From a virus (taxonomy: Duplodnaviria > Heunggongvirae > Uroviricota > Caudoviricetes): a stretch of DNA of 64,000 bases. The notes under the pieces are model-generated. The model was not told the origin of the DNA. It did not search any database and was given only the letters and a program-made list of their open reading frames with translations. Positions 6,843 to 47,646 of the stretch are shown piece after piece. The stretch lies in IMG/VR virus record IMGVR_UViG_3300012942_000033, positions 35,512-99,511 of that record. One strand, given 5' to 3'. The translations under genes were made by a program, and so were the position numbers. Within the stretch, counting starts at the first letter, position 1. Each line of letters begins with the position of its first letter.

Positions 6843-6855
6843 ATGAACAACCTGA

Positions 6856-7336: not shown

Positions 7337-7348
7337 TGACTGGATGAA

Positions 7349-7714: not shown

Positions 7715-9376
7715 TTATTGGTCTGATATCAGGTGTGTGACATCTCGAACAACACTTTGAATTTCAATGAGTTTACCTTCTTCATCAAAGATGCCCCGAT
7801 CGATCCAATCCTGCCAACGGATCTCATCATGGCGTTGAATGCGATGAACGCCCCGTCTAACTTCATGCTCGGGCCGAATAGCTAACATGTAATCTTTGAA
7901 CTTCTGGTGATCACTCGGTGGTATCACCTCAAAGAGTGAGAAGCCGTTGATATCCTCGAGTTCTACATCAAAGTAGTCTCGAAAGGTCTGGTTGCTGAAG
8001 GTGATCTCGAAATTACTGTTGAAGCAGACCACCATATCAATGGTGTTATCGATGATCGTCTTGTAACGCTCTCGAGCTGTCTTGAGTTGGGTCTCGATAT
8101 CCTTGAACTCTGTGACATCACGCACGATCGCGATACGAGCCTCTGCGTTATCCCACTCAATAGCTCTACTGTTTACTGCGACCTCCTTGACATCACCCTC
8201 TTTAGTCAGGAACAGAGTCTCGTAGGATTTATCACTAACCAGGTCGGCGTCAGCGATGATCTTCTCGCGTTCCAAAGGATGAAGAAGATCGAAAGGATTG
8301 AGTTTCTCCAATTCAGTGTCATTGTAACCAGTCAGATTATAGGCTCGCTCGTTCCAATCCATGAGCTTCTTATAGTTGTGGATGAACATGGATTCCGATG
8401 ATGCGTCACTGAATGCTCTGAAATGTGATTCGCTCCGACTCAAATCCGTGTAGGCTTTCTTGAGCTCAGTGGTATCGTAGAAAACCAGAATCCATTGAAC
8501 TGCCTGATAGCCTTTGAAAATTGGTGTGATATGAACGTCAAACCACAGCTTCTTAGTGTCTTTGAATTCCAACTGAACCTCGTGGCGGGCGGTGATTTCC
8601 TCTCCTAGCGTTCGGCGCACCTTCCAGTAGGATTGGTCAATACCCAGGATATCTCGGAGATTCCTCTTACTAAGTTCGGCTCGGGTGGTATTGGTGATAC
8701 GCGCAAAGCCTTCATTGACGAATGTGATTTTATAGTCAGGGTCGTTCTTCTCAAGAATCACGAAACCAGTATTCGATGAATCAATCGTCGTAAGTAGCTC
8801 TTGATTCTTCTCGGCTAGCTCTTTCATGATCTTCGAGCTGCGAACTCTGTGAGTCACATTGCGGATCAGAATGATGTAATAGGTCTTGCTGTTGCTACGG
8901 GTGAATTTGCTCGCGCCGACATCAACGTAAATCTTGGCACCATCCTGGCAGATACCCATGAACTCTTCATAATGAACTGTCGCAAAGTCGTCTTCTTCAT
9001 TGACCTGCCCCATCATGTTTTCCATGAAGTCAGAATTAACGACCACTCCATCATCGAAATGAAAGAGGAGTGAGATGCTCTTGCCAATGACCTGGCGTTT
9101 CTTCCAGCCAAACATCGTTTCAGCAGCTGGGTTGAAGCTCTCAATGTTGCCATTGGTATCGACGAGTAGAAGGGCGTCACTTAGGAGTCTGGATGTTTGG
9201 TCGATCTGGTTCGCGTAGTCATCAATTCGGGCCTGGAGTGCGGTTGTGACATCCTGAGCTAGATCCATTGTGCCCTTGGCGGCCTTCTCTAGAGCTTCGC
9301 TACTATCGAGGGCCGCCTGTAGACTTGCTGATCTTGCTTTCTTCCGATCTTCCTTGGATTGCCCGAACCACTTCAT
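7715..9376 (-). CDS. multi-PAS domain protein (about four PAS/PAC repeats, no recognisable output domain)
   Basis: PAS-like segments recur, for example LLLVDTNGNIESFNPAAETMFGW, FVILEKNDPDYKITFVNEGFARITN, MFIHNYKKLMDWNERAYNLTGY and MVVCFNSNFEITFSNQTFRDYF. No HisKA, GGDEF or HTH domain is seen. Confidence 0.7.
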   Translation of the reverse strand: MKWFGQSKEDRKKARSASLQAALDSSEALEKAAKGTMDLAQDVTTALQARIDDYANQIDQTSRLLSDALLLVDTNGNIESFNPAAETMFGWKKRQVIGKSISLLFHFDDGVVVNSDFMENMMGQVNEEDDFATVHYEEFMGICQDGAKIYVDVGASKFTRSNSKTYYIILIRNVTHRVRSSKIMKELAEKNQELLTTIDSSNTGFVILEKNDPDYKITFVNEGFARITNTTRAELSKRNLRDILGIDQSYWKVRRTLGEEITARHEVQLEFKDTKKLWFDVHITPIFKGYQAVQWILVFYDTTELKKAYTDLSRSESHFRAFSDASSESMFIHNYKKLMDWNERAYNLTGYNDTELEKLNPFDLLHPLEREKIIADADLVSDKSYETLFLTKEGDVKEVAVNSRAIEWDNAEARIAIVRDVTEFKDIETQLKTARERYKTIIDNTIDMVVCFNSNFEITFSNQTFRDYFDVELEDINGFSLFEVIPPSDHQKFKDYMLAIRPEHEVRRGVHRIQRHDEIRWQDWIDRGIFDEEGKLIEIQSVVRDVTHLISDQ

Positions 9377-15008: not shown

Positions 15009-15379
15009 ATACCTTCCCCACAGCCTCTGATGCACGAGCAGGTTCTCGCAATAACATAGCGATCCATAACGAGATCCGAGCAATAGAATCGGATATCTAT
15101 AACGCCATTGCTCAGGGTAAGATGAACGCAGATGTCAAGGATAGCCCATTTACTGTGACACCGACCGAGGGTGCACCCGACTCAGATATCAACGCCTATG
15201 ACTATTACGGAGCTCTATTCCAGGATACGCCTGGAAGCTCTGATGTTGATCTACTCTACCGCTCACTCAAGGAGCAAATTGACATCGTTCAACAGAACTT
15301 CACCAGTCTAGGCTATCAAGTTCAACCCCTTCAGAATACTGATACGGGTAACACGTTCTTCTGGAGGATCTTATGGTAA
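15005..15379 (+). CDS. hypothetical protein
   Basis: ATGA overlap with the upstream gene. Confidence 0.5.
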   Translation: MNTFPTASDARAGSRNNIAIHNEIRAIESDIYNAIAQGKMNADVKDSPFTVTPTEGAPDSDINAYDYYGALFQDTPGSSDVDLLYRSLKEQIDIVQQNFTSLGYQVQPLQNTDTGNTFFWRILW

Positions 15380-16998
15380 TGGAATTACTCAAGATGCTCA
15401 ACGAGACTAAGCTTCATTCACGCACTCATTATGATGGCCTTGACATCAGTGTTGAGGTTCCTGCTAATGGTTATCGCCGTGGTATCAACAAGAAGACTGG
15501 TGAGGAATGGTCTTACAAGATTCCAGCCAGCTACGGTTACATCAAAGGCACGCATAGCCCTGATGGCGAACACTTGGATTGCTATCTGAGGAAGAACCCC
15601 AAGAAGGGCGCTCAGGTTTATGTCATGCACCAGTTGACACCTGATGGTTCTCGCTTTGATGAGGATAAGGTAATGCTTGGTTATTCAAGCAAGAGCGAAG
15701 CTATCAAAGCATTCAAGGGCATGACTTTCAAGCCGGGTACGATGTACGGCGGTTGTACTGAATTTGATATGGAGCACTTCCAGGTGATCGCATTCAGTGC
15801 CTCAAATAGTCACGCCATGTTGACTAAGAATGCCACCTATGATGAATTCAAACGCAAGGGCCTGCTACCCAGGAACATCAAGAGCCCACTCATGGTTGCT
15901 CGGAAGGTTTGTGAGGGTCTAGCAGAAGGTCTTAACGAGATTGGCCAGACTCTAAGTCGTGGTGATCTCGAAGAATGTCTAGATTGGTCAGGTTACCATG
16001 AAGGCAGTTCAATCGAAGCAGTTCTTACTCGTGCCTATGGTCATTACTCAGGCACACCGTACATGCATGACTTTGGAACCCTATCAGAGGAAGAGTTCAA
16101 AGCCAAAGTGCTCAACCATATCATGGAGCAGGATGCTCTTCTGACTGATACCGAGGATCATTATGGATTGGAAGAAGCTATCGAGGAACTTGAACCTATC
16201 AGTGAAGATATTGGTGATATTGAAAGCGGTGACCGACATTCACCTGATCTTGAAATCGAAGAAGTAACGGAGGAAGCCATGGAAGCCAATAACTTTGCCG
16301 TAGTGGTTCATACCCAGATGATGGAAAACATTGGCTCGGCCGAGAATCCAAGTTGGGCAACTGCTGGAACTAAGGTTCTGCTGGTTCAGGAGGGTTTTGC
16401 TACTTGGGGTGAGGCACGCTCGGTCGCTGCCAAGGTTGCTGCGGGGCAGATCTCCGTTGAGCTATCGGAGAATGCTCATGTGCTTGGTATTGATGTCATG
16501 CCAACTGCTGATTACCACTACCTACATGAAGAGGTAGTAGAAGATGAGCCAGTTGAAGAAGACATGACCGATGATGTCTTCTTCCAACAGCAGGTCATGG
16601 AGATGAAAGCAAAGGCTGGTATCCGTGATGGCTCCTATGAAAACCAGGGCACACCTAGCGTTCATGAAACTCGCGAACGTCTCGCTAAGTTGACCCAAGA
16701 CTTTTACAAGGGTCTGGAAGCTCAGGAGCTCGAGGAAGCTACTGCCAAGTTGAGTGATGGTAAGATTGCTCATGCTCTTCGAGTAGTCAAGGAGACGCTG
16801 AAGGCAAATCCACATGCCAATGTCAATCAGGCAATCAGAGCTGTTTGTAAGAGGCTCTTTGGTGATCCAAACCTCGATGAAGAAGTGATCAAATATGCCG
16901 AATTTGAATATGGCACTCTAGATGAGTTCGATGATCAGATCCGTGGTCGGAAGGCACCTGAGAAGATCTCAAGAGTTATCACCAAATACGAGAACTAA
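15373..16998 (+). CDS. hypothetical protein
   Basis: 541-aa ORF. Confidence 0.6.
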   Translation: MVMELLKMLNETKLHSRTHYDGLDISVEVPANGYRRGINKKTGEEWSYKIPASYGYIKGTHSPDGEHLDCYLRKNPKKGAQVYVMHQLTPDGSRFDEDKVMLGYSSKSEAIKAFKGMTFKPGTMYGGCTEFDMEHFQVIAFSASNSHAMLTKNATYDEFKRKGLLPRNIKSPLMVARKVCEGLAEGLNEIGQTLSRGDLEECLDWSGYHEGSSIEAVLTRAYGHYSGTPYMHDFGTLSEEEFKAKVLNHIMEQDALLTDTEDHYGLEEAIEELEPISEDIGDIESGDRHSPDLEIEEVTEEAMEANNFAVVVHTQMMENIGSAENPSWATAGTKVLLVQEGFATWGEARSVAAKVAAGQISVELSENAHVLGIDVMPTADYHYLHEEVVEDEPVEEDMTDDVFFQQQVMEMKAKAGIRDGSYENQGTPSVHETRERLAKLTQDFYKGLEAQELEEATAKLSDGKIAHALRVVKETLKANPHANVNQAIRAVCKRLFGDPNLDEEVIKYAEFEYGTLDEFDDQIRGRKAPEKISRVITKYEN

Positions 16999-24124: not shown

Positions 24125-24532
24125 TTGGTTGACCGGCTGAGGTTGGCGTCTTTGATTCTGACCAAGCCAGACCATTTAGTTCAATATCAAGCCAACTTAC
24201 CAATTGTCTATGATCCAGTGAATCGCCGCCTGGTCATTGAGGGGGATTTTGAGATCCAAGCTAAGGGCAATCTTTATCTGAACTCTGATCAGCACGTGGT
24301 GGTTCATAGCGGTAATACTGGCGGTCATTACACTCATGCGATCTGGCTCAATCCAGATCTGGAGGATGAATATGCTATCCATGTCGAAGATTGTGAACCA
24401 GGAAGCTCTCGACAGCCAGATTTACAATCCAACCACCAAGCCGTCTGTTTTGATGCTACAGCAGATCATGCAGACCACTCCGAGACCTGCTCCTTCTGCG
24501 ACTCAGCAAAATCCTCCCCCACCGCTGATTAA
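24125..24532 (+). CDS. hypothetical protein (start uncertain; TTG or GTG)
   Basis: This frame-2 ORF gives a plausible protein (QYQANLPIVYDPVNRRLVIEGDFEIQAKG). It overlaps the next ORF in another frame, so gene boundaries here are ambiguous. Confidence 0.3.
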   Translation: MVDRLRLASLILTKPDHLVQYQANLPIVYDPVNRRLVIEGDFEIQAKGNLYLNSDQHVVVHSGNTGGHYTHAIWLNPDLEDEYAIHVEDCEPGSSRQPDLQSNHQAVCFDATADHADHSETCSFCDSAKSSPTAD

Positions 24533-25295
24533 TTCCAGCGATACAAGCGTTGTGCCTCCTGAGCTGAAGGAGCACGTTGATGCCTTCTTCGCCCTACCAA
24601 CCACAAACCCCTACTATGGAGTTTTGGTCAATCCAGCATCATGTCTAATCGATGACATCAGGAATAACTTCACTGATTTGAATCAAGCAGGGCAGGATCT
24701 TGATGCCGCCTCTGGTCAAACTGATTGGGCTGATTACCAGGATGAATACGACCAAGACACGCAGGATATCGCTTCGGATCTCGATTCGATCCAAGATCAC
24801 ACAGATCGCCTAACGAGCAATCTACCAAGCCTGGCAGGAGTAGCACAAGGCGCCCTAGCCCTCGCTACTGTGATGAACCTTTTGAGTAATCCGTGTCTTG
24901 GTCTGGATGGCATGTTGGGGAGTGTCATGGATTCAGGTAAGCAACTCCTCAATGATGTGGCTAATCAGGTTAAGGCTGGTATTGGTCAGATCACAAGTGC
25001 TATAGGAGATGTGACATCTGCAATCCAATCCGGAGTACAGAGTGCAATCACCGCTGCTAAGGCGGCTATTGGACCACTCATGGATCAGATCAAAGATGGT
25101 ATCGCGGTAGCCAAGCAACAGGTTAGTGCTTTCATTGATAAGGCAAAGACCGAGATCATGAACTTTGCCAAAGCGGCTTTGGCACAACTACGTCAAGGTT
25201 TGGCTGAATTGATGGCTAACCTACCACAAGATCCTTGTCTGCGTGGTCTCCTAACCAGCGCGGCAACTGGCGCGGCCGCAGCAATCATCAAATGA
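24456..25295 (+). CDS. hypothetical protein (Gln/Ala-rich helical, possibly structural)
   Basis: The long open frame begins at 24336. Internal ATGs at 24369 and 24456 are alternative starts. The C-terminal half is coiled-coil-like. Confidence 0.45.
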   Translation, partial: LQQIMQTTPRPAPSATQQNPPPPLINSSDTSVVPPELKEHVDAFFALPTTNPYYGVLVNPASCLIDDIRNNFTDLNQAGQDLDAASGQTDWADYQDEYDQDTQDIASDLDSIQDHTDRLTSNLPSLAGVAQGALALATVMNLLSNPCLGLDGMLGSVMDSGKQLLNDVANQVKAGIGQITSAIGDVTSAIQSGVQSAITAAKAAIGPLMDQIKDGIAVAKQQVSAFIDKAKTEIMNFAKAALAQLRQGLAELMANLPQDPCLRGLLTSAATGAAAAIIK

Positions 25296-26269
25296 CCAAA
25301 CCAGCAGTAAGAAAGGGTGATAAGTGTACGGGTCATGGCGACGCAAAGCCAAGACCTTGTGACCAGGGTTCACCTGATACTTTCATCAATGGTAAGGCAG
25401 CCCACCGCCAGGGTGACCATTGGGCAGTTCATAAAAATCATGACAGTCACCTCGCAAAAGGTTCTGATTGCGTCTTTGTGAATGGTAAGGGTCAGGGTAG
25501 GGTTGGTGATCCTATCCTTTGTGGAAGTCGGTGCCAACAAGGTAGCCCGAACGTCTTCGTAGGTGATAATTCGAGTAGTGGCGGATCAAGTCAGTCAGGC
25601 CAAGGAGCAGCTTCTGCACCAATTGATTACACCAACCCATACCGCTTTGAAGGTGGTGCTGGTGCGGATGGTTATTCGGGTTCAGGCACCATTGAGACTG
25701 AAGGCGGCGTTACTGGTGCTAGTGATTCCGATACACCAGCCTCTGATCCTGATTCACAGGAGCCACTAGACGCAAGTGATGATGACGTTGATTGGCTCAC
25801 CACGTGTATGATTGATGAGGCGGGTAATCAGAGCCAGAAGGATGCTTGGGCAGCGGTAGCCGCTGTGGTAGTAGATCGACTACAGACTGGTAGAGCGACC
25901 GGAACGGTTAATCCGGCCTGGCACGGAACTATCAAGGGTATCGTTCTAGCTAATGGTCAATTCTCGGGCTTCTACTTTGAGATGATCAACCGTCACTACA
26001 CTAGAGTCGTAGCAAGCAAGGATTGGGCGGCTGCTGAAAAACGTGGCAAACAGAAGATGGCACGATATCGTCAGCGTTCTCAATGGAATGCCTTCCATGA
26101 GGTGGCCCAACAGGTCGTCAATGGATCCTACCAGGGCGGTGCAGGCTGGAGATTAGTTAAGAGTCGCCCTGCGCTCATGTACTGTAATCTGGCCATCTCA
26201 AATCCGCCCTGGGCCACCCAGAGCAAATATGTCACTAAAATCGAGGATCACACCTTTTTCGTGGCTTGA
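25292..26269 (+). CDS. PAAR-like domain protein fused to a SleB-type cell-wall hydrolase
   Basis: N-terminus has PAAR/gp5.4-like Cys/His/Gly repeats (KGDKCTGHGD...GSPDTFINGKAAHRQGDHWAVH...VFVNGKGQGRVGDPILCGSRC...SPNVFVGDN). C-terminus has a SleB/Hydrolase_2-like segment (CMIDEAGNQS...VVVDRL...GIVLANGQFSGF). ATGA overlap with the upstream gene. Confidence 0.6.
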   Translation: MTKPAVRKGDKCTGHGDAKPRPCDQGSPDTFINGKAAHRQGDHWAVHKNHDSHLAKGSDCVFVNGKGQGRVGDPILCGSRCQQGSPNVFVGDNSSSGGSSQSGQGAASAPIDYTNPYRFEGGAGADGYSGSGTIETEGGVTGASDSDTPASDPDSQEPLDASDDDVDWLTTCMIDEAGNQSQKDAWAAVAAVVVDRLQTGRATGTVNPAWHGTIKGIVLANGQFSGFYFEMINRHYTRVVASKDWAAAEKRGKQKMARYRQRSQWNAFHEVAQQVVNGSYQGGAGWRLVKSRPALMYCNLAISNPPWATQSKYVTKIEDHTFFVA

Positions 26270-26294
26270 CATCTTGGTGTCACGTTGCTATATA
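26266..26294 (+). promoter_or_regulatory. sigma70-type promoter driving the tmRNA gene
   Basis: TTGACA (26266-26271), a 17-nt spacer, then TATATA (26289-26294). This places the transcription start near 26301, just ahead of the tmRNA acceptor piece. Confidence 0.55.
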
Positions 26295-26300
26295 GGATGG

Positions 26301-26760
26301 GCTATTGAAGACCGACGCCAAGTATCGACTAGCGGACGCGGGGGCAGTACCCGCCAGGTCCACCATAGCAAGTGACCTAGGAGCACTCGGAGCAATCCGG
26401 GCGGCGCCAACACCACCGAGGGAATCGAAGGATCTCAACCGGATCTGGGTCTTGAGGATGGTATGAGGAAGGGTGGATGAAAGTGAGGCACCGCGGAAGG
26501 CCTCATGAGTAAGGTAAGTCACTTGCTTTGCTGGGCCTGAACTTAGGATCGACGTGGAAGAGAACGGCCGAGAGAAGATCCGGGAAACCGGTGAAGCGAT
26601 GGTAGGGGTGGCACCCTGGGGAAACCCGCAAAGCCACGCATGTAAATGCAAACGACAACACTGTCGAGGTCGCTCTCGCCGCTTAATTGTGGCGCGGGTA
26701 ACCGCCTAAAGTCTTAGGGCTTCGACTCCTTAAGCGCGGTATGGTTCCACCGGGCAACAG
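26301..26760 (+). ncRNA. ssrA: circularly permuted (two-piece) tmRNA gene (ssrA); acceptor piece precedes coding piece
   Basis: The acceptor 3' end GGACGCGGGGGCAGUACCCGCCAGGUCCACCA (CCA at 26363-26365) matches the E. coli tmRNA 3' end GGACGCGGGUUCAACUCCCGCCAGCUCCACCA. Downstream, GGGCCUGAACUUAGGAUCGACGUGG (from 26533) matches the tmRNA 5' end GGGGCUGAUUCUGGAUUCGACGGG. The tag frame GCA AAC GAC AAC ACT GTC GAG GTC GCT CTC GCC GCT TAA (26648-26686) encodes ANDNTVEVALAA followed by stop. The 3' boundary is approximate. Confidence 0.8.
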
Positions 26761-26827
26761 AAAGGGCCAACCTTCCTATTACTCTTGACCTATTGGTAAA
26801 CTCCATTATTCTGCCGGGTAATGGGGT

Positions 26828-28615
26828 ATGTGGATAGATCAGGGAGACCACAGAAACCTTTATAACGGGTCGCATCCAAGGCTTACATCTCCGGAGCGGG
26901 GGTTTGCTATGTCGGATGAGCCAGTTAATTTTTCATGGATTGACCAAGCGTTGGTCTATGATCAAGACAAAGAGGAACGAGTGGATAAAGCAATCAAATC
27001 CGACATCAACATCAAGATGCTTACCGAACTCGCTCCTACTATCATATGGACGCGGAATCCTAAGTGGGATTTGACCTATATCAACTCATTCTGGTTTGAA
27101 TTCACTGGATGTCAGGATAGGCCAGTCAGTGAGATTGATTGGCAGGTCTTCATCCATCCTGATGATCTACCTACCATTACAGCTTATTGGAAGACCGCTC
27201 TTGAGCTCAACTTGGAGTTCAAGGTTGATTTTCGCCTTCGCCGCCGAGACGGTGAATATAGGTGGTTCCAATCAGTAAGCCGGCCAGTCACCAACAAAGC
27301 CGGTGAAGTCATTCAGTGGCTCGGTGTTTCGTCGATCATCCAAGACCTCAAAGAGGCACAGGAGGAGACCGAACGTCTTCGTCAGGAACTTGAGGAGAAA
27401 GTTCTCCAAAGAACCCAGGCCCTTGAGGAAGCACAGGCACAGGTTCTAGCCGAAATAAGCGCACGTCAGGCCACCCAGGATGCTCTTCGTCAAGCTCAGA
27501 AGATGGAGAGCGTGGGCCAATTAACTGGTGGCATTGCGCATGATTTCAACAACATGCTCACGGTGATCATTGGTAACCTTGAGTTACTCAAAATGAGTGC
27601 GCCCAAGTTGGGGGATAATCCAGTCGCGAAACGCATGGAACGCAATGTCAGTATGGCGATCGAAGCCTCGATTAAAGCCGAGAAGCTTACTGCTCAGTTG
27701 CTAGCGTTCTCGAGAAAAGCCCGTCTTCAGCTTGAACGTCTTGATGCCAATGCGGTCGTTGTTGGTGTCAGAGAAATGGTTGAACGAGCTGTTGGTATCG
27801 CTGTTAGTTGTGAGATCGACATACAGGATGATCTCTGGCTTTGCCTTTCGGATAAGACCCAGCTCGAGAGCGCAATCATTAACCTGGCTATCAATGCTCG
27901 CGATGCAATGCCTCTGGGTGGTAAGTTGTGTATCTCCACGGCCAACAAGGAAGTTGGTGATCTACGCTTCGTTAGTGTTTCGGTCAGCGATACCGGTCAG
28001 GGTATGAACCTAGAAACCCTGGAGAAGGCTTGCGAACCATTCTTCACCACCAAGGACGTTGGTAAGGGAAGCGGTCTTGGGCTCTCGATGGTTTATGGAT
28101 TCTGCCAGCAAAGCAATGGCAAGTTGATTCTTGAGAGCGAGGAAGGCCATGGCACTACTGTTGAAATGCTCTTCCCCTATACGGCTGGCGAAACCATTGA
28201 GGCCACCCAAGCGGAGGAAGACTTCAACTTTGATGCCAACAAACAAAGCATCCTAGTTGTTGATGATGAACCAGCGGTCAGAGAATTAGCGTGTCAGCTA
28301 TTGACTGATGCGGGGTTCAATGTCGTTAGCGCTCAAGATGGTCAGACGGCCATCAATATAGTCAAAGACCTCACCATACCACTCGACCTTCTATTCACTG
28401 ATATCGTGATGCCAGGCGGCATTGACGGATTTAGTCTAGCCAAGGTGGCCAATCAGGTACGCCCCACTCTACCTGTTATCTTTACGACTGGCCACGCGGA
28501 AGTTGCCCTCAAGGAATTGAGGAAGGATCTGTCGCAGAAGCTCAAAGTCATCGGCAAACCTTACCGGTTGAACGAGTTGAAGCAAATGATCCTTCATGAA
28601 CTGGCTATCCAGTAA
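26828..28615 (+). CDS. hybrid sensor histidine kinase (PAS, HisKA, HATPase_c and C-terminal receiver)
   Basis: PAS-like N-terminus. H-box [20 protein letters not shown]-boxes DTGQGMN and [14 protein letters not shown]. Receiver domain [12 protein letters not shown]...[14 protein letters not shown]...TTGH. The true start may be the downstream ATG (MSDEPVNF). Confidence 0.8.
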
Positions 28616-29625: not shown

Positions 29626-30000
29626 ATGTCGAATGGTCGTATTCTTCTAGTTGAGGATGAGCCAATGCTCCATTTCCTCTGGGAGGATATATGCGCGATC
29701 AACGATTTCGAAGTTGCCTTCACGGCCATGACCTGCCAGGAGGCGCTGGCTTACCTGGAAGAGAATAGTGATGACCTCTCGGGTGTTATCCTTGATGTGA
29801 ACCTACACGGTGAGATGTCTAATAGGGTAGCCGCCTATCTTAGAACCCTTGCCTTGCCAGTGGTAGTATCAACGGGTAGTCATCCAGATACGCTACCTCT
29901 GGAATTCAAGGGATGGCCCACACTTTGTAAACCTTACCGCCCTCACGACATTGTGAGCATTTTGCCAACCCTGGCTTTTAGCAAGCAGACAGTTAGGTAA
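29626..30000 (+). CDS. stand-alone response-regulator receiver (CheY-like) domain protein
   Basis: ILLVEDEP acidic pocket, VILDVNLHG with a candidate phospho-acceptor Asp, and VVVSTGSH. 124 aa with no output domain. Confidence 0.5.
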   Translation: MSNGRILLVEDEPMLHFLWEDICAINDFEVAFTAMTCQEALAYLEENSDDLSGVILDVNLHGEMSNRVAAYLRTLALPVVVSTGSHPDTLPLEFKGWPTLCKPYRPHDIVSILPTLAFSKQTVR

Positions 30001-30464: not shown

Positions 30465-31127
30465 GTGACTCACCGTTCGCTTAGAGCGGTTCACATGGAT
30501 TTCATGGCCTTCCTCACCGCAACGCAGAATCTGGCTTTCCTTATTGCTGGCATTCTCGTAGCAGCAATCTTCGTCGTCGAGTTCCTAGGAACTATGATCG
30601 GGTTCTCCTTAAGTCATCTAGGACCTGACTTCCACATTGACCTAGATCATGATGGCACACCTGATCACCTTGAGGGTGCGGGCCTTATGGCTTGGCTCAA
30701 TCCTGGTGGCGTGCCGTTTATGATCTTCCTCACGTTGGGGACCACTATCTTCGCGATAGTGGGTTATGCGATTCAGGCTGTGAGTTGGTCTAACACCGCT
30801 TACCTTCTGCCTGGATTGGTCATTTGGCCAATTTCATTCCTATTGACGCTCATATGCGTTCGACCTTGGACCCGCTGGATCAACCGGGTTCTACCAAGGG
30901 AAGAAAGTAGCGATGTCAGCCTTAGCAGCCTTGTTGGTGAGTCTGGCGTAGTGACTGTGGGCCCTGTAACCAAAGAGCAATTTGGTTTCATCAGGGTTCG
31001 CGACAAGTTTGGCACTGATCATTCGATCCAGGTCGCAGCAAACAATGATGAGGTGTTTGCGATTGGTGCCGAAGTTCAACTAGTCGGACCTCACCCTACT
31101 AACCTGTATGCGTATCTAATCCGCTAA
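30465..31127 (+). CDS. NfeD-like membrane protein (partner of the SPFH/flotillin protein)
   Basis: Several N-terminal transmembrane helices. C-terminal OB-fold-like segment (GESGVVTVGPVTKEQFGFIRVRDKFGTDHSIQVAANNDEVFAIGAEVQLVG). Lies directly upstream of the flotillin gene, as in NfeD–SPFH operons. Confidence 0.6.
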   Translation: MTHRSLRAVHMDFMAFLTATQNLAFLIAGILVAAIFVVEFLGTMIGFSLSHLGPDFHIDLDHDGTPDHLEGAGLMAWLNPGGVPFMIFLTLGTTIFAIVGYAIQAVSWSNTAYLLPGLVIWPISFLLTLICVRPWTRWINRVLPREESSDVSLSSLVGESGVVTVGPVTKEQFGFIRVRDKFGTDHSIQVAANNDEVFAIGAEVQLVGPHPTNLYAYLIR

Positions 31128-31139
31128 CTGGAGAAAACC

Positions 31140-32876
31140 ATGTCTATCAAGTTCATTGGCTTGCTAGTCGGGCTGGCGGTCGTAGGATTCCTGATCCTCG
31201 GCATGATCATCACCCGGCTATATAAGCGAGCTTCCAAAGAGACTGCCTTCGTTCGCACCGGTATGGGCGGCCAGAAGGTGATCAAGGATGGCGGTGCGCT
31301 CGTCATTCCAGTCGTTCATGAAACCCTCGATATCAATATGCAGACCCTTCGTCTGTCGGTAAATCGCGGTGGTCAGAACGATTCGCTTATCACAAAGGAT
31401 CGCTTGCGCGTTGACGTGAATGCTGAATTCTACGTTCGGGTTGCTCCAGATACGGAGAGCATTGCTACGGCGGCTCAGACGCTTGGTCGGCGAACAATGG
31501 ATCCTAGCCAGCTAAGCACCCTCGTTGAGGGCAAGTTCGTTGACGCCCTGCGCGCTGCCGCTGCTTCGATGGATATGCAGGATCTGCATGAGAAGCGCAC
31601 CGAGTTCGTTCAGAAGGTCAAGACGACTGTTGCGGAGGATCTGAAGCAGAACGGTCTTGAACTTGAGTCGGTCTCGCTGACCAACTTGAACCAGACTGAC
31701 ATCAGTCACTTTGACGCCAACAACGCCTTCGACGCCGAGGGTCTTGCGGTCATTGCCAAGGTCACTAGTGCGCGCCGCAAGGAGCGCAATGACATCGAGA
31801 AGCAGACCGAGGTCGAAATCGAGACCAAAAATCTCGAGTCAACCAAGCGCACCTTGGAGCTCAAGCAAGAGGGTGAATTTGCTCGCCTGGATCAGGAGAA
31901 GCAGGTTCAGACTCGTGCGGCAGAGCAGGAATCGCAGCTTGCTATCGCTCGTGCGGAACGTGAACGTGAGGCGGCTGTCGCTGCTGAAGCGGCGAAGCAG
32001 GCGTCGGAACAGGCTCGTATTGAGCGTGAACGTGGCGTGAAGGTGTCTCAGACGGAAGCTGACCAGGCCACTGAACTGGCGGCTCAGGCCTCGCGTATTG
32101 CGGTTGCGGAGAAGTCAGAGGCAGAATCCAAGGCGAAGGCCAAGGCTGATGAGGCGCGAGCCGAAGCAACCAAGGCTGCTGAAAACGTGACGACCGTTTC
32201 GGCCACCGCACGAGCTGATCGTGAGGCGCAGATTGCGGTTATCGCTGCCGAGGGTGAAGCGAAGCAGAAAGCCGCGAGCATCACGGTTCAGGCCGAGGCT
32301 GAGCTCAAGGCTGCTGATTCACAGGCCAAGGCCAAGGAACGTCTCATCGAGGCTGACGCCAAGCGTTACGAGGTCGAATCCACGGGTCAGCGTTCGCTCC
32401 ATGAGGCTGGCAACGTGATCAGCCCCGAGAGCATGAACTTCCAGCTTCGGAAGGCCATGGTCGAGCGTCTGCCTGAGATCATCGAATCGATGACTAAGCC
32501 CATCGAGAAGATTGACAGCTTCCGTGTCGTTCATATGAACGGAGGCCTCAACATGGGCCATGGTGCTGCCAATGACGGCGCACCGGCTCTCGATAAGGGT
32601 AGCCTGTCGAATCAGATGACTGACGCTCTGCTGAACTATCGTATGCAGGTGCCATTCGTCGACGCGCTGGGCAAGGAACTCGGTATCGATTTCACTCAGG
32701 GCATGAATGGCATGGTGACTTCGGCGGGTCTCCCCGTTGAGGTTTCGGATCTGCCGGAAGAGCCCAAGCCCTCGATTCCGACCGAAGCACCTCGGTCTGC
32801 CACTACTCGTGAAGCCCCGCTGGCTCCTGAGGATAAGGCAGAGATCCAGAAGCTTGCTGGGATCGCCAACGGCTGA
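31140..32876 (+). CDS. flotillin-like SPFH/band-7 protein (FloT/YqiK-like)
   Basis: N-terminal transmembrane helix plus SPFH core, then a long Ala/Glu/Lys/Arg-rich coiled coil (EREAAVAAEAAKQASEQARIERE...). Confidence 0.8.
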   Translation: MSIKFIGLLVGLAVVGFLILGMIITRLYKRASKETAFVRTGMGGQKVIKDGGALVIPVVHETLDINMQTLRLSVNRGGQNDSLITKDRLRVDVNAEFYVRVAPDTESIATAAQTLGRRTMDPSQLSTLVEGKFVDALRAAAASMDMQDLHEKRTEFVQKVKTTVAEDLKQNGLELESVSLTNLNQTDISHFDANNAFDAEGLAVIAKVTSARRKERNDIEKQTEVEIETKNLESTKRTLELKQEGEFARLDQEKQVQTRAAEQESQLAIARAEREREAAVAAEAAKQASEQARIERERGVKVSQTEADQATELAAQASRIAVAEKSEAESKAKAKADEARAEATKAAENVTTVSATARADREAQIAVIAAEGEAKQKAASITVQAEAELKAADSQAKAKERLIEADAKRYEVESTGQRSLHEAGNVISPESMNFQLRKAMVERLPEIIESMTKPIEKIDSFRVVHMNGGLNMGHGAANDGAPALDKGSLSNQMTDALLNYRMQVPFVDALGKELGIDFTQGMNGMVTSAGLPVEVSDLPEEPKPSIPTEAPRSATTREAPLAPEDKAEIQKLAGIANG

Positions 32877-32906
32877 TCCTACCCTAGCAGGGCTTTGTAG
32901 GGAGGG

Positions 32907-33647
32907 GTGGCAGAAGTGCCACCCCTTTCCTATCTGAGTCTTTCTGTTGTAGACATTTCGGTAGCGAGCGCTAATACTGACTCTGACATGAGGAATAGCA
33001 TGACATTACGTATCGGAGGCATCGCAGCTTTGTGTGGTGCAGTTTGTGTCTTTGTGGGTGGTATGGCTGCGTTCCCCTTACATCTTATCGGTGACCTCAT
33101 GGTCAGCACTCCACTATCTGTGGCAACGGGTGTGGGTATTTGGTATTTCTGGCCTGGCCGCAAACCAGCCAATGATATCGAGACTCTGCTGAACGATCAG
33201 GAACTCCTCAAGAATGCGACCGGTCTGAGTAAGCGAGACATCGTCGAGACAATCAGGCTAGTAAGTGATAAGTTGGATCGCATCCTCATGAGTGCTGCTC
33301 AGATAAATGAGCCTAAGGTCACACGTCGTATCCAACATCTTGATGCGATTGGTCGGAAGATCATCGACGAGTTCAGGGTGCGACCCATTGGAATCCAGAG
33401 GTCACAAACATGGATCCATGCCTACTTGGATCAAGCCATTGAGTGCGTCGACCAATATGCTCAATTACATGGATCGAAGATCCGCAATGACGAGGTGCGA
33501 CGTCAGATGGTAGAGTTTGACGATATGTTGGTCGAACTCCAGGAGAAGTCGCAGGAATTGCTTGATCTGCTACTGACCCATGATACGACGACCTTCGATG
33601 TCAATGTTTCAGTATTTCGTGATATGATGAAGAACGAGGGAATCTAA
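32907..33647 (+). CDS. membrane protein (possibly XpaC-like); start likely downstream at MRNSMTLRIGG
   Basis: Two N-terminal transmembrane segments then a helical domain. Its position directly upstream of a TelA-like gene mirrors the Bacillus xpaC–yaaN pair. Confidence 0.35.
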   Translation: MAEVPPLSYLSLSVVDISVASANTDSDMRNSMTLRIGGIAALCGAVCVFVGGMAAFPLHLIGDLMVSTPLSVATGVGIWYFWPGRKPANDIETLLNDQELLKNATGLSKRDIVETIRLVSDKLDRILMSAAQINEPKVTRRIQHLDAIGRKIIDEFRVRPIGIQRSQTWIHAYLDQAIECVDQYAQLHGSKIRNDEVRRQMVEFDDMLVELQEKSQELLDLLLTHDTTTFDVNVSVFRDMMKNEGI

Positions 33648-34810
33648 TGACCGAGGCAACTATGACGCAGACCACCCTACCAGCTCTGACTCCTGAGGCA
33701 TCTCAGGTCTTGGATTCAACCTCGCTGGTTAGTTTGGCGCCGGCAGGCTCAGCGATTCAGATCACGAGTGTTTCTGAAGAGCGAGCCAAGGAGTTGGCTC
33801 AGAAGATCAACATCCACGACACACAGAGCATTATCGGCTTCGGTGTTGAAGCCCAGAAGGGTGTGACCCAGCTGAGTGAACAGATGCTTGAGGGTGTGCG
33901 AACCAAGGATACTGGCCCGGCTGGTGAAGCCCTCAACCTTATGGTTCATGAGATGCGTGGGCTGGATTTCAGCAAGCTCACATCCAAGCAAGGTTTGGTG
34001 GCGAGGATCCTCCACAAGGCCAGCAAGGTCACGCTATTCCTCGAGCAGTATGAAACGGTTCAATCGAAGATCAACAAGACCCAAGCGGTTCTTGATAGTC
34101 ACCGTATCCAGATGCTTCGTGGAGTGAAGGTGCTTGATCTGCTCTACAAGAAGACCCTCGAACTCCTGTATAACCTGGATGAGCAGATCGCAGCCGTTCA
34201 ATATAAACTCAACGAGGTCAACGCTAAGGATATCCCCGAGGCAAATGAGAAGGCCCAGCAGACCAAGGATATGGCTGACACCCAAGCGGCTGCTGATTTG
34301 ATCCAAGCTCGTGATGCCTTGGAGCGAAAGCTTCATGATCTACAGCTGAACCGCCAGATCACCATCCAGGCCCTACCTAGCATTCGTATCGTTCAATCCA
34401 ACGAAGTCGGTCTTTCGGAGAAGATCCAAGGCCAGATCCTCAACGCTTTGCCTCTTTGGAAGCGTAATATCGCACTAGCAGTCGAAATGGCGAAGACGCA
34501 GAATGCTGCCAAGGCCACCAAAGCAGCTAGTGATTTTACCAATGAACAGCTTCGTATTGGTGCGCAGATGCTTCAGCAATCCAACCTAGCGGTTCGAACT
34601 GAAATCGAGCGCGGTATGGTTGACATTGACAGCGTCAAGTTTGCCAACGATCAGTTGATCCAGACTATTGAGGATACGATCACGATCGCTCAGGAGGGTA
34701 AGAATATGCGAGCCCAGGCGGAACAGGAGCTCGCCCAGGCCGAGCAGAAGCTCAAGGAAACGCTTCTGAGCGCTGCTAATCGACAGGCGAATATGAAGGC
34801 TCTCGCGTAA
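33647..34810 (+). CDS. TelA-like (toxic anion resistance) family protein
   Basis: 387 aa, helical, with TelA-like conserved segments (IGFGVEAQKGVTQLSEQML, LNLMVHEMRGLDFSKL). ATGA overlap with the upstream gene. Confidence 0.55.
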   Translation: MTEATMTQTTLPALTPEASQVLDSTSLVSLAPAGSAIQITSVSEERAKELAQKINIHDTQSIIGFGVEAQKGVTQLSEQMLEGVRTKDTGPAGEALNLMVHEMRGLDFSKLTSKQGLVARILHKASKVTLFLEQYETVQSKINKTQAVLDSHRIQMLRGVKVLDLLYKKTLELLYNLDEQIAAVQYKLNEVNAKDIPEANEKAQQTKDMADTQAAADLIQARDALERKLHDLQLNRQITIQALPSIRIVQSNEVGLSEKIQGQILNALPLWKRNIALAVEMAKTQNAAKATKAASDFTNEQLRIGAQMLQQSNLAVRTEIERGMVDIDSVKFANDQLIQTIEDTITIAQEGKNMRAQAEQELAQAEQKLKETLLSAANRQANMKALA

Positions 34811-41117: not shown

Positions 41118-42242
41118 CTGAATAAGCTGATGACACCGGAGACGAAGAAGCTGAGCAAGGCCTTTGACATGGCCGGCTTCGAAATCCGTTTCGTCGGCGG
41201 CTGCGTTCGGGACGTTCTGCTGGGTGTTGAACCCAAGGATGTGGATTTCTGCACTGACGCCACTCCTGACGAGATGCGCGATATCGCGGTAATCAACAAG
41301 TTCAAGTTCCTGCCCACTGGCATCGATCACGGCACCGCAACCATCGTAGTTGATGGTGAGCCCTTTGAGGTCACCACCCTGCGCGTTGATGCGGAGACTG
41401 ATGGTCGTCATGCCAAGGTCGAGTTCACCAGGGATTTTGAACTGGATGCCGAGAGGCGTGACCTGACCATCAACGCAATGTCGATGGATACAAAGGGCAA
41501 TCTCTTCGACTATTTCGGTGGCCAGGAGGATCTGAAGAACAAGGTCGTGCGGTTCGTCGGTGATGCGAAGACGCGCATCGAGGAGGATTACCTGCGTATC
41601 CTGCGTTACTTCCGTTTCGCGGCTCGGTTCGATGCACAGATGGATCAGGAGACGCTGGATATCTTCAGCGATCCTGAAGTGCTGGCTGGTCTGAATCGAG
41701 TTAGTGTTGAGCGGTTCTGGTTGGAGATGTCAAAGCTGCTGACCTATAGCGCTCGGGTGCGAGTCATGGAGGCTATCTTTGGCACTGGCGTCAATGCTTC
41801 GTTGAATCTGTTTCGGTTCGAGCCCAATGAGCTGAGCCGGGCCGATGATGCGGTGGCCGCATTGGCAACGCTGATCTCGAGCGACGACGAGGAGCGGTTC
41901 TTCCAAATCTGGAAGATGAGCTCTCCGGAGGAGGCAAAGGTTCGCAACATGATCCGTAACCGCGGTGGGTTCCTGGATGAAGTGCGCGTTGAGGTCATGC
42001 TGACCCGCGATAAGTTCCCCAGGGATCACGTGGTGAGCCTGGCTCTGGTCGCCAGTGAGCCCACGCTGGCTCAACATGCTAGGGATTTTGTTGTTCCGAC
42101 CTTCCCCATTACGGGTAAGGATCTGATGGGTGTTGGTATGGCTCCAGGCCCACAGATGGGTCAGCGCCTGCGTCGGATGGAAGCAGCCTGGGTTGATAGC
42201 CGGTGGAACCTGGCCAAGGAAGCCCTGATGGAGATCGAGTAA
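41115..42242 (+). CDS. CCA-adding tRNA nucleotidyltransferase / poly(A) polymerase family protein
   Basis: Class II nucleotidyltransferase head motifs: FVGGCVRDVLLG, DVDFCTDATPDE, GIDHGTATIV, RRDLTINAMS. GTG start. Confidence 0.8.
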   Translation: MLNKLMTPETKKLSKAFDMAGFEIRFVGGCVRDVLLGVEPKDVDFCTDATPDEMRDIAVINKFKFLPTGIDHGTATIVVDGEPFEVTTLRVDAETDGRHAKVEFTRDFELDAERRDLTINAMSMDTKGNLFDYFGGQEDLKNKVVRFVGDAKTRIEEDYLRILRYFRFAARFDAQMDQETLDIFSDPEVLAGLNRVSVERFWLEMSKLLTYSARVRVMEAIFGTGVNASLNLFRFEPNELSRADDAVAALATLISSDDEERFFQIWKMSSPEEAKVRNMIRNRGGFLDEVRVEVMLTRDKFPRDHVVSLALVASEPTLAQHARDFVVPTFPITGKDLMGVGMAPGPQMGQRLRRMEAAWVDSRWNLAKEALMEIE

Positions 42243-42526
42243 TGGCTCGAATCACCTTCGAGGAATATCAGGCCCAACTGGAAGAGCGCACACGCGAAAG
42301 CATCTGCGTCATTCTGGTTGGGTTTGATCATATGATCAAACAGACTGATCCTCAATGGCCCGATACCTTCCGTTGGATAGCGGGACCTGAGATTGAGGCG
42401 TTCTTCAAGCGGCACGGGATCAAGAAGCTCGTGATTCGCAATTCCGATGAGCCCAACGAGACGAGCTACTATTTCTCCAAAGATCACGCGGATATCGCCA
42501 CGCTTTTTAAACTAACCTTTGGCTGA
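42242..42526 (+). CDS. FKL-WG family small protein (ATLFKLTFG)
   Basis: TAATG overlap with the CCA-enzyme gene; C-terminal family motif. Confidence 0.5.
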   Translation: MARITFEEYQAQLEERTRESICVILVGFDHMIKQTDPQWPDTFRWIAGPEIEAFFKRHGIKKLVIRNSDEPNETSYYFSKDHADIATLFKLTFG

Positions 42527-42529
42527 ACA

Positions 42530-42826
42530 ATGAGTGAGGTTCAATTCATCATTAGGGTTGATGATTCGACCCTCCTCGACCACAATGCGACTCTTCGCAC
42601 TGAAGTAGTGGAGTGGCTGAACGATGTGGCAGGCCAGGTGAAATGCGATCGCCGGCACGTTCATTTCATAACCAGCCCACCCAATTGGTGGTATGAACGT
42701 CATCCTAGAACTGATATCGGATTTACCACGCTCACTAGGATGGCTATTCAAGCGGAGCAGACCTGGGACGTATTCACGTTCATCGATCCGAAGCTCGCCC
42801 TCTTATTCAAACTGGCCTGGTTATGA
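42530..42826 (+). CDS. FKL-WG family small protein (ALLFKLAWL)
   Basis: C-terminal motif; tandem array member. Confidence 0.5.
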   Translation: MSEVQFIIRVDDSTLLDHNATLRTEVVEWLNDVAGQVKCDRRHVHFITSPPNWWYERHPRTDIGFTTLTRMAIQAEQTWDVFTFIDPKLALLFKLAWL

Positions 42827-43149
42827 CATTCAATAGCAAGATGGAACCTGGTCCTTGGTATGCTGATGGTATTGAAGTTGGTGTGGATGATGTGCCAGAG
42901 GATGACCTCCTCTACACTGTTACCCTACGAGCTAATAACAGGGCTATACGGCGTGATGATGTCTACAACATGCCTGTGCCTAGCTTGGCCCTTACAACCT
43001 GGCTTAAAGCTAGGAATCGTGCGGATGAACGGATTCGCATGTCGCAATATGAGTTGATCGATGATCAACAAGGTGAGCCTTATTTCGTAGTTCACTTCCA
43101 CTTTGAGGATAAGGATCTCGCTATGCTCTTCAAGCTGGTATGGGCATGA
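42823..43149 (+). CDS. FKL-WG family small protein (AMLFKLVWA)
   Basis: C-terminal motif; ATGA overlap. Confidence 0.5.
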   Translation: MTFNSKMEPGPWYADGIEVGVDDVPEDDLLYTVTLRANNRAIRRDDVYNMPVPSLALTTWLKARNRADERIRMSQYELIDDQQGEPYFVVHFHFEDKDLAMLFKLVWA

Positions 43150-43445
43150 TTAGGGGATATCATACACTCACTGAACTTGAGAACCAGGTTCGATCTCTCG
43201 TAGATAGGCTCGCTCTAACCAAGGATACCAAATACCATCGAGGAGCTCGCTTTGATTACAAGATCCAGCCAGACTGGAAGGCCATGTATAAGTTCAGGAG
43301 AGCCAACACGGCCAGACGCACATGTCTGCTGATCAATTGGTGTGACAAGCATTGCCAGGGTGATTACTCATATGATGGCCTGCCCGTAGGATTTAGCTTC
43401 AAGGTCAAGAGCGATGCCATGCTATTCAAGCTAGCTTGGGGTTGA
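43140..43445 (+). CDS. FKL-WG family small protein (WCDKHCQGDY plus AMLFKLAWG)
   Basis: Carries both the central W-C-x-x-H-C-x-G-D-Y motif and the C-terminal motif. Confidence 0.6.
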   Translation: MGMIRGYHTLTELENQVRSLVDRLALTKDTKYHRGARFDYKIQPDWKAMYKFRRANTARRTCLLINWCDKHCQGDYSYDGLPVGFSFKVKSDAMLFKLAWG

Positions 43446-45885: not shown

Positions 45886-46431
45886 CTATCTACCGCCGGG
45901 TAGACTCGCAAACACATGGGCTCCGATACGGATCTTATTAACTAAGCGTTGGGTCCAAGAAAACTTCAACCGTGCCTGGTAGAAGAACGTAGAACCATCC
46001 GTAGGGTCATTCACTTTCTCCCCACTAATGAGTAAGACCGCTTTGCGTTGGCTTTCGAGCCATGCTGCCTTCTCATGTGGAATTTGTGCTCTCAATGGCC
46101 ACCTAGTCCAAGAAAATTGCCCTGGAGACCACACGACATCGCATACAGTATTGGCATTGAATGCGTCATGGTGAGTTCTGTTTAGGGTAACAAATCCAAC
46201 TGCCCATTGATCTCGAGAAGTTCCTCCTCGGATCTCATGATAGATGTTGAGTGCCATACACAACATCTGATCCTGATCGGTCGGGTCGGCTTGCTCAATT
46301 TGTGGGTCTATATCCCCTTGAGCCCTGACCGCACTGAGTAGCGCTTGGTATCTAGGTAGTGTCTCCGCTGCGGCTTGGTTGGGCGTTAGCCATAGAGACA
46401 TGAGGAGCACCAATGCTCCTAAAAATTTCAA
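45886..46431 (-). CDS. secreted SleB-type cell-wall hydrolase (candidate endolysin or spanin-region lysin)
   Basis: N-terminal signal peptide (MKFLGALVLLMSLWLTPNQAAA). Hydrolase_2-like core (ALNIYHEIRGG...AVGFVTLNRT...VCDVVWSPGQFSW). Confidence 0.6.
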   Translation of the reverse strand: MKFLGALVLLMSLWLTPNQAAAETLPRYQALLSAVRAQGDIDPQIEQADPTDQDQMLCMALNIYHEIRGGTSRDQWAVGFVTLNRTHHDAFNANTVCDVVWSPGQFSWTRWPLRAQIPHEKAAWLESQRKAVLLISGEKVNDPTDGSTFFYQARLKFSWTQRLVNKIRIGAHVFASLPGGR

Positions 46432-46500: not shown

Positions 46501-47106
46501 TTATAGGTTATGTCTATCTTCCAAGCTGAGTAGTTGTTCTCCTACGATGAGTTTGAAGAGCAACACGTCGTTTAATTTATCCAGGTAGAGGAACGTTCTG
46601 GGGCTGGTGACGAGTTTTACGGGGCCGGATAGCTTATCCAGTTCGGTTAGATTCTGAGGATCCAACCCCCACTTTGGGTCTTTGAATCCAAAACGATAGC
46701 CATACTCTCCGTAGAACTTCCCCTTGGGGCGAGGTTTGGGGAGGCCGAGATGCCAACATGTACGATCAACGATACGCACATGATTGAAGGTGAACATGAC
46801 CTGATGGCGGATGAACCAGCGAAGAACCTCAGGATCGTTGGAGAAGACGTTGAACTGATAGATTCGCTGATTGGATTGTAGGGCGATATCCTTGGCCATC
46901 AGATCGCTAAGGATGAGATCCTTGACCTGTTGCCAATCACCCCAATGAGTGATTTTCAATGATATGCCAAGGCCATAGGCGTACTGACCGAAGAATAGCG
47001 GTCTGCGCACTGTTTCGATCTGTGAATCCTCTACAAGATAACGTGCCATCAGTGCATCGCACGCCTTTTGGATTCTTTGTTCAAACGTCCAAGGCATACC
47101 CACCAT
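46501..47106 (-). CDS. hypothetical protein with an FKL-like motif (NDVLLFKLIVGEQ)
   Basis: 201 aa. The motif near the C-terminus resembles SDVLMFKLTWGGEQ of ORF 50883..51260. Confidence 0.45.
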   Translation of the reverse strand: MVGMPWTFEQRIQKACDALMARYLVEDSQIETVRRPLFFGQYAYGLGISLKITHWGDWQQVKDLILSDLMAKDIALQSNQRIYQFNVFSNDPEVLRWFIRHQVMFTFNHVRIVDRTCWHLGLPKPRPKGKFYGEYGYRFGFKDPKWGLDPQNLTELDKLSGPVKLVTSPRTFLYLDKLNDVLLFKLIVGEQLLSLEDRHNL

Positions 47107-47193: not shown

Positions 47194-47646
47194 ATGGCTT
47201 TGGTTGATCCAGAACGACCGGAAGATCAGATGGCTTTACTCGATGAAGCCAGCATCTACTTCCTGCGAGCAATCAAGCAGCATTATACCCGAGATACATC
47301 ACTTGATGTAATGGAAGCCCTTACGCCCATTCTGGGTAAGGATTGGAAGGGGCGGATCATCTTTGGTCTGATGGCGAATAAGCACCAGGCCATTAGGGCT
47401 ATCAGTATTAACCGTATGACTGCCCCTGCACTTGTGAATAAGATCAAGGCAATCAAGGAAGTTCGAGCAATCAGTCGGTTGGGTCTCGTTGAAGCTAAGA
47501 CTCTTGTTGAGGCGGCGTATGAGCGCTCACAGGTTGTTAAGGTGGCTGAGCAGCCCGAAACCATGTCTCAGGATAGTTGGAATCTGATCCTAAGCAATAG
47601 TATCAACGCCATCAAGGATGCTGGCTTTAGAGTGGAGATCTCATGA
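47194..47646 (+). CDS. hypothetical protein
   Basis: 150-aa ORF with a GTTGACAC box upstream (47144-47152). Confidence 0.5.
   Translation: MALVDPERPEDQMALLDEASIYFLRAIKQHYTRDTSLDVMEALTPILGKDWKGRIIFGLMANKHQAIRAISINRMTAPALVNKIKAIKEVRAISRLGLVEAKTLVEAAYERSQVVKVAEQPETMSQDSWNLILSNSINAIKDAGFRVEIS

Follow-up and report, generated by a model that had tools for sequence, protein, structure and literature searches.

A 2021 survey of jumbo phages described phage PAAR proteins as standalone and, unlike those of type VI secretion systems (T6SSs), as not fused to effector domains (PMC7824862). On the T6SS side, Acinetobacter rudis has a validated PAAR–SleB-like effector, T6EC3, whose toxicity requires a glutamate equivalent to that of SleB (PMC11148199). 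SleB itself uses a catalytic glutamate and is a lytic transglycosylase, not an amidase (titles of PDB entries 4fet and 4f55; PMC11148199). Here, we analysed a stretch of 64,000 nucleotides from a virus of the Caudoviricetes (IMG/VR record IMGVR_UViG_3300012942_000033, positions 35,512 to 99,511), referred to below as the window, in which one gene (25292..26269, + strand) joins a PAAR cone to a divergent SleB-type domain. As the window locus and related loci carry PAAR–hydrolase fusions, they contradict the statement of the survey. No paper describing phage PAAR–hydrolase fusions was found, which does not prove that none exists. The design as such is already deposited but under-described; what is new is the version with a SleB-type enzyme and the swapping of modules at one locus.

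Both open reading frames (ORFs) singled out by a first-pass annotation of the window, 25292..26269 (+) and 45886..46431 (−), were found exactly where it had placed them. The former encodes 325 residues and is complete, including its stop codon. Its ATG start and the stop codon of the preceding gene overlap in the sequence ATGA, and its TGA stop (26267-26269) directly abuts a transfer-messenger RNA (tmRNA) gene. The ORF list, Pfam, homologues and an AlphaFold2 model confirmed it as a real, conserved three-part gene, consisting of a PAAR cone (residues 1-93; 25292..25570, +), a flexible linker (residues 94-158; 25571..25765, +) and a divergent SleB-type (Hydrolase_2) domain (residues 159-325; 25766..26266, +). 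No signal peptide or transmembrane segment was seen in the protein. The same PAAR plus Hydrolase_2 architecture was kept in 15 full-length metagenomic homologues (44-73% identity).

The PAAR cone proposed at first pass for the N-terminus was borne out by Pfam, by structure comparison and by conserved His and Cys residues. Residues 1-93 contain 5 Cys and 6 His, and three PAAR-type repeats following the x-V-x-G-x-x-x-x-GD pattern (PAVRKGD, AAHRQGD and GQGRVGD) can be read from them, in agreement with the Cys/His/Gly-rich, repeat-bearing N-terminus that had been described. Pfam calls were judged against curated thresholds, the cut-off being 27 bits for both PAAR_motif and Hydrolase_2. PAAR_motif matched in three stretches (E=3e-13, 50.2 bits) and Hydrolase_2 at residues 184-323 (E=2.7e-8, 34.8 bits); because both exceed the curated thresholds, these are not chance matches. 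Profile matches of the PAAR domain among PDB sequences were 4jiw, 4jiv and T4 gp5.4. In this search, H15, H47, H50 and C77 (codons at 25334, 25430, 25439 and 25520), which we take to be candidate zinc ligands, aligned with the His/His/His/Cys of V. cholerae VCA0105. A His/His/His/Cys metal site near the PAAR apex is said to have been described by Shneider et al. in 2013. In the alignment of the 15 homologues, these four residues are invariant, as are C12, the block DW..CM.DEA (which includes E176), FSGF, E318 and H320.

The 65-residue linker contains 13 Ser, 13 Gly and 6 Asp as well as a conserved GYSG(S/A)GT motif; S129 and G130 are invariant among the homologues and G132 nearly so. An AlphaFold2 model built on the homologue alignment showed two confident domains, residues 1-93 (predicted local distance difference test, pLDDT, ~90) and ~160-325 (pLDDT ~88), with residues 94-154 disordered (pLDDT <50). 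When the PDB was searched with Foldseek, the N-terminal domain matched 4jiv, 4jiw, 9vyi and 4ku0 with template modelling (TM) scores of 0.81-0.89 and root-mean-square deviations of 1.4-2.8 Å, the PAAR matches being E. coli c1882, V. cholerae VCA0105, phage P1 UpfC, Klebsiella phage KP1 and T4 gp5.4. The C-terminal domain matched the SleB catalytic domains 4fet and 4f55 (probability 1.0, TM 0.73 and 0.61).

A profile–profile alignment (hhalign) of the fused domain with the secreted Hydrolase_2 family of 45886..46431 gave E=2e-5 and placed E176 on the YHE/YGE glutamate. The motifs AVAxVVxNR, FSGF and IEDHTF, together with E176, are invariant across the homologues, and the domain carries a ~30-residue insertion relative to canonical Hydrolase_2. 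Because direct sequence matches to SleB structures were not significant, the SleB assignment rests on fold, profile–profile alignment and motifs. The SleB-like C-terminal region reported at first pass was thereby upheld; of its label "amidase/SleB fold", the SleB fold stood and the amidase part did not, SleB being a lytic transglycosylase. Residues 159-325 are predicted to form a lytic transglycosylase with E176 (codon 25817-25819) as the putative catalytic residue. A fold search of BFVD returned no viral protein combining PAAR with the SleB fold.

Phage context and module swapping at the PAAR locus

The window comes from a jumbo myovirus of the Atu_ph07/Phosso type, of which it is a fragment, and not from a bacterial T6SS locus. 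Its genes include those for a primase, a DnaB-like helicase, an exonuclease, the alpha and beta subunits of ribonucleotide reductase (RNR), topoisomerase II subunits, a tRNA nucleotidyltransferase, QueD and virion structural proteins. No nucleotide-level relatives were found among cultured phages. Over 90% of its length, a 650-residue virion protein shares 37% identity with a virion protein of the Sinorhizobium jumbo phage Phosso (469 kb), and it also matches Atu_ph07 and PA5oct-type phages. Related contigs, one of them 468,011 bp long, share a gene order that runs from the InPase protein through exonuclease, RNR, glutaredoxin, Sm-like, DUF7217, PAAR and tmRNA and, further on, to YqiJ, flotillin, TelA, SNase and NADAR; its Sm-like–DUF7217–PAAR core was also found in Phosso. 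A related myovirus, AP-J-162 (471.5 kb, 47% GC), has one tmRNA and a tail that seems to be contractile (PMC11242549). The jumbo-phage gene order and this relative point to a contractile-tailed jumbo phage rather than a T6SS, in line with the tail-spike position proposed at first pass. A single PAAR is encoded in the window, and the fusion is carried by three IMG/VR viral contigs.

At the syntenic locus, relatives carry a bare PAAR of 91-94 residues, a PAAR with a SleB-like domain or a PAAR with an SLT-type lytic transglycosylase. On the 468-kb contig (L039), a bare 91-residue PAAR, missed by the gene caller, follows the DUF7217 gene and ends in ...DVFVG and a stop codon, precisely at the point where the linker of the window protein starts. 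Phosso has a PAAR of 94 residues at this locus. The PAAR of protein P0017 (locus L007) is 67-72% identical to that of the window, but its C-terminus is different: it is of SLT type, matches the solved lytic transglycosylase 9udh (E=6e-39) and is ~50% identical to free phage transglycosylases. A further protein, P0019, joins PAAR to a VgrG3-like C-terminal domain in an uninformative genomic context. The exact PAAR–SleB fusion was found in none of 50,697 cultured phage genomes, and the PAAR plus SLT-type fusion in no cultured phage. Searching cultured phages with the fused C-terminal domain by tblastn gave no match at E<=0.01.

Other PAAR ORFs in IMG/VR, 317-394 residues long, end in a phrog_894 "endolysin" domain, which is homologous to a free baseplate-module protein and has only sub-threshold Pfam matches to Peptidase_M15. 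Full-length homologues of this PAAR plus M15-like type occur in 25 cultured phage records. In Vibrio phage 207E48.1 (QZI90516.1; L046 3001-3987), such a protein of 329 residues, annotated as hypothetical, occupies the gp5.4 position of the baseplate module. The first-pass view of an uncommon fusion was thus right for the exact combination, but a PAAR joined to a peptidoglycan hydrolase is not unique. PAAR plus phrog_894 fusions were also seen at L016, L017, L020, L021, L025, L026 and L036, mostly annotated as "hypothetical" or "PAAR motif" without the fusion being pointed out; at L036, the fusion lies between an RNR gene upstream and a Hydrolase_2-like ORF downstream.

PA5oct gp245 (L048 4980-6002) combines a PAAR N-terminus, 44% identical to that of the window protein (E=1e-20), with a peptidoglycan-degrading C-terminus. 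The latter, however, is an unrelated M15-like peptidase (phrog_894), not a SleB-type transglycosylase. As in the window, the gene lies shortly downstream of RNR genes; it directly follows RNR alpha and beta in PA5oct, and the window PAAR gene lies ~2.4 kb downstream of RNR beta with five short genes between. Using electrospray ionisation tandem mass spectrometry (ESI-MS/MS), gp245 was detected in virions (Lood et al.).

The fused SleB type forms a small subfamily of its own, with 95 cluster representatives among 1.84 billion in an exhaustive profile search. In about 10 of these, all of them long proteins, the domain forms the very C-terminal end, and gp5-type spike domains (Phage_base_V, DUF2345, Gp5_trimer_C) were present in 9/10 of the long proteins scanned. 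The gp5-like spikes that end in this subfamily are P0183-P0186, P0188, P0190, P0191, P0197 and P0205 (loci L041 10001-11848 and L044 5021-7312). P0188 additionally contains Peptidase_M15_4 and P0191 a CHAP domain, and P0184 adjoins a gp25 baseplate gene. As the domain is found C-terminal on gp5-type spike proteins, members of the subfamily have time and again been placed at the far end of the devices with which phages puncture cells. These SleB-tailed spikes came from metagenomes only, with no counterpart in the cultured collection searched.

Proposed role of the fusion protein

We propose, with a probability of about 0.7, that the fusion protein is part of the virion, in a single copy, and acts as a lytic transglycosylase on peptidoglycan, its enzyme domain being held on the spike tip to help passage through the cell wall. 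The N-terminal PAAR cone, present in one copy per virion, would cap the blunt end of a trimeric gp5/VgrG-like beta-helix, and the ~65-residue flexible, acidic linker would tether the SleB-type domain to the cone. Upon sheath contraction, the spike would pass through the outer membrane and bring the tethered enzyme into the periplasm. There, it would cut glycan strands locally, with E176 as the general acid, so that the tail tube could cross the peptidoglycan. The enzyme module is interchangeable, being absent, SleB-like or SLT-type at the same locus and an M15-like peptidase in more distant large phages. Presence in the virion would carry over by analogy from PA5oct gp245, the one homologue for which it has been shown; assembly on the spike of this phage, enzymatic activity and timing of action are what we infer.

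Several observations weigh against this proposal. The first-pass annotation had suggested looking for baseplate and spike genes in the rest of the genome; the 64-kb window contains none that could be found, nor a sheath gene, and the genes around the fusion are those of nucleotide metabolism. The fused domain scores only modestly against Hydrolase_2 (34.8 bits), and its direct sequence matches to SleB structures were not significant (E=0.26-0.32). Close relatives, L039 and Phosso, manage with a bare PAAR, so the basic machine can do without the enzyme. Finally, the ESI-MS/MS flag of PA5oct also marks RNR subunits, so the detection of gp245 is no proof of a structural role.

The order of N-terminal PAAR, linker and C-terminal peptidoglycan-degrading domain is also that of specialised T6SS effectors such as T6EC3, and weaker PAAR homologues carry DUF6402 (P0021-P0025) or, as in P0019, a VgrG3-like C-terminal domain. 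The gene might accordingly encode a PAAR toxin that a bacterial or host injection machine, either a T6SS or an extracellular contractile injection system, uses against neighbouring cells, the phage or prophage carrying it as cargo. However, no T6SS core genes were found in family scans covering ~54 of the ~100 window ORFs (most long ones included) or in Pfam tables of syntenic loci, which held phage and auxiliary genes only. There is also no immunity gene directly downstream of the fusion; its stop codon borders on the permuted tmRNA, and next comes a gene for a hybrid histidine kinase. The fusion is found on viral contigs of IMG/VR, takes the place that the standalone structural PAAR has in related jumbo myoviruses and has a counterpart in PA5oct virions. 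We therefore regard an effector role as very improbable.

It is likewise improbable that the C-terminal domain is a decayed enzyme or a non-catalytic peptidoglycan-binding or anchoring module that holds the tip in the wall or plugs. The divergence of the domain, its ~30-residue insertion, its modest Pfam score and the lack of a significant direct match to SleB structures would fit such a role, but the glutamate and the three motifs are invariant over the 44-73% range of the homologues. Moreover, bona fide lytic domains replace the SleB-like domain at the same locus, and this speaks for catalysis as the function under selection. Quite improbable, too, is a late action of the fusion, either endolysin-like (lysis from within) or in superinfection exclusion, with the PAAR as only a folding or targeting scaffold. 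Such an action would suit a gene outside any baseplate module and the resemblance of the relatives' C-terminal modules to free phage endolysin-type enzymes. It agrees poorly with a protein that has no signal peptide or transmembrane segment, in a phage that already encodes a separate SleB-like enzyme predicted to be exported, and with the conservation of spike-facing and candidate zinc-binding PAAR residues. In PA5oct, furthermore, the counterpart of the fusion is virion-associated and the free SleB-like protein is not.

These findings indicate that phage PAAR tips can carry peptidoglycan-degrading domains that are exchanged between close relatives at one locus. The natural series of tips (no enzyme, SleB-like, SLT-like and M15-like) could serve to test the contribution of tip muralytic activity to wall passage and host range, and the fusions offer small lytic modules, tethered by nature, that could be built into engineered phage tails, tailocins or lysins. 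A wider idea, to which we give limited credence, is that the PAAR tip of large or jumbo myoviruses is a plug-in socket for interchangeable wall enzymes (SleB-like, SLT-like, M15-like, possibly VgrG3-like, or none), captured from the phage lysin pool in the way that T6SS PAARs diversify toxins. On this view, the module carried would fit entry to host peptidoglycan chemistry or to periplasmic lysozyme or transglycosylase inhibitors, and the spike tip would be a second, post-adsorption determinant of host range.

Other features of the window and comparison with known systems

The second ORF (45886..46431, −) encodes a SleB-type (Hydrolase_2) enzyme of 181 residues (Pfam E=9e-17, 62 bits). Its sequence matched the SleB structures 4f55 and 4fet (E=1e-4) with YHE on YGE, so that the YHE glutamate, E66, aligned with the YGE glutamate of SleB; E66 (codon 46234-46236, −) is invariant in homologues and is the putative catalytic residue. 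A Sec signal peptide with a site between AAA and E is predicted at residues 1-22 (46366..46431, −), and the N-terminal pattern of MK, a hydrophobic stretch and TPxxAxA is kept in full-length homologues. The TTG start is preceded by a GAGGTG motif. The protein is predicted from its sequence to be a Sec-exported periplasmic SleB-type enzyme of an ordinary, widespread phage type; its family has matches in 870 phage records, including rV5/phiTE-type phages, and homologues occur on jumbo-size contigs, including contigs that carry the PAAR fusion.

This protein is homologous to PA5oct gp368 (E=2e-9), which is absent from virions and has been proposed to be an endolysin (Lood et al.). Like gp368 and the "cell wall hydrolases" of rV5/phiTE-type phages, it is a single-domain Hydrolase_2 protein in the range of ~170-190 residues. 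No holin or spanin gene was found beside it: QueD-like, Smr-like, L12-like and topoisomerase genes lie there, and a crude hydropathy scan showed no transmembrane proteins. Moreover, the related AP-J-162 has been reported with a T4 lysozyme (T4L)-like endolysin (PMC11242549). For these reasons, the endolysin role stays that of a candidate, with what we judge to be slightly less than an even chance. The signal-bearing SleB-like enzyme noted at first pass was therefore recovered, and its suggested lysis function draws on the analogy with gp368. A separate idea, that the fused domain is a duplicate of this gene, was rejected, as BLASTP gave E=0.22 and kinship was seen at the profile level only.

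The tmRNA (26262..26777, +) is of the permuted (two-piece) alphaproteobacterial type (Rfam RF01849, 98.8 bits) and has the tag ANDNTVEVALAA. A tmRNA downstream of the PAAR gene is conserved across the whole phage clade, with copies at L009 10979-11477, L010 8183-8566, L011 10967-11364, L039 11120-11463, L003 11102-11416, L007 11454-11789 and L005 (Phosso) 6796-7485. ARAGORN missed those in L003, L007, L039 and L005, all four of which were found with Rfam, and Phosso has no annotated feature at this position. A prophage boundary at a host tmRNA was rejected, since phage gene order runs across the tmRNA in the window and its relatives and the tmRNA is clade-conserved, Phosso included. Right after the tmRNA lies a gene for a hybrid PAS-HisKA-HATPase-receiver histidine kinase (26828..28615, +), conserved in L009, L039 and L040. 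The window also encodes a four-PAS-domain protein (7715..9376, −) and a stand-alone receiver domain (29626..30000, +).

Upstream of the PAAR gene, and translationally coupled to it through the ATGA overlap, lies a gene for an all-helical DUF7217 protein (24372..25295, +), whose start is preceded by a GGAGG motif. The Pfam match, at 25.6 bits, falls short of the cut-off of 29, and the assignment draws in addition on gene order and on an AlphaFold2 model. The order of DUF7217 followed by PAAR also occurs in L003, L007, L039 and Phosso, the Phosso homologue matching at E=7e-31. The model is a long helical bundle for which Foldseek found nothing in the PDB at E<=1e-3, and no papers on the family were found. 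Its most conserved segment, LLSNPCLGLDG, forms a low-confidence hydrophobic loop, and weak, non-significant fold matches include the ClyA/Smh/Ahl/Hbl alpha-pore-forming toxins. Judging from the model, the protein might be co-ejected and membrane-active.

At the head of the syntenic block, a conserved gene (15373..16998, +) encodes a 541-residue protein with an N-terminal InPase domain (PF18823, E=3e-31), which in PHROGs aligns with parts of giant polyvalent proteins of virion and anti-restriction type. A membrane-stress-like module (30465..34810, +) comprises YqiJ (NfeD-like), flotillin/SPFH, a Halogen_Hydrol-family protein and a TelA-like tellurite-resistance protein; the module is conserved in all syntenic relatives, and Phosso has an SPFH-domain protein near the PAAR gene. 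Four consecutive small ORFs (98-108 residues; 42203..43445, +) share the C-terminal ...LFKL(T/A/V)(F/W)(G/L/A), and a similar LLFKLIVG is found in a 201-residue ORF (46501..47106, −) upstream of the secreted hydrolase. The small ORFs with LFKL-type C-termini look like a tandem paralogous family. A 150-residue ORF (47194..47646, +) has a homologue on the 468-kb contig with a precomputed Ribosomal_L12 Pfam match, and by analogy it may encode a phage bL12-like protein.

Compared with described systems, the PAAR domain of the fusion (residues 1-93) shares fold, repeat pattern and His/Cys positions with T4 gp5.4 and the standalone phage PAAR tips (PF05488; 4ku0, 5iv5, P1 UpfC 9vyi and phiKZ gp163.1 6p1z), and the fusion gene is positionally equivalent to the PAAR genes of Phosso and L039. 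Those proteins have ~90-100 residues without an extension, whereas the window protein adds the 65-residue linker and a 167-residue enzyme domain. With Bacillus SleB (PF07486; 4fet, 4f55), the latter domain shares the fold, the conserved glutamate and the family motifs, but it lacks the N-terminal peptidoglycan-binding domain and the spore-cortex context and contains the ~30-residue insertion.

T6EC3 likewise joins a PAAR to a domain of SleB fold and depends on its catalytic glutamate, the E108Q variant being non-toxic (PMC11148199). T6EC3, however, belongs to a bacterium that has a T6SS and a periplasmic immunity protein, and its targets are other cells, whereas the window offers a phage context with neither an immunity gene nor a T6SS. 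The parallel proposed here with T4 gp5, whose virion-borne muralytic activity on the central spike opens the peptidoglycan at entry, is functional and not one of homology. T4 gp5 has a T4L-type lysozyme inserted in the spike protein and present in three copies, whereas the window protein would carry its SleB-type domain on a single PAAR cap.

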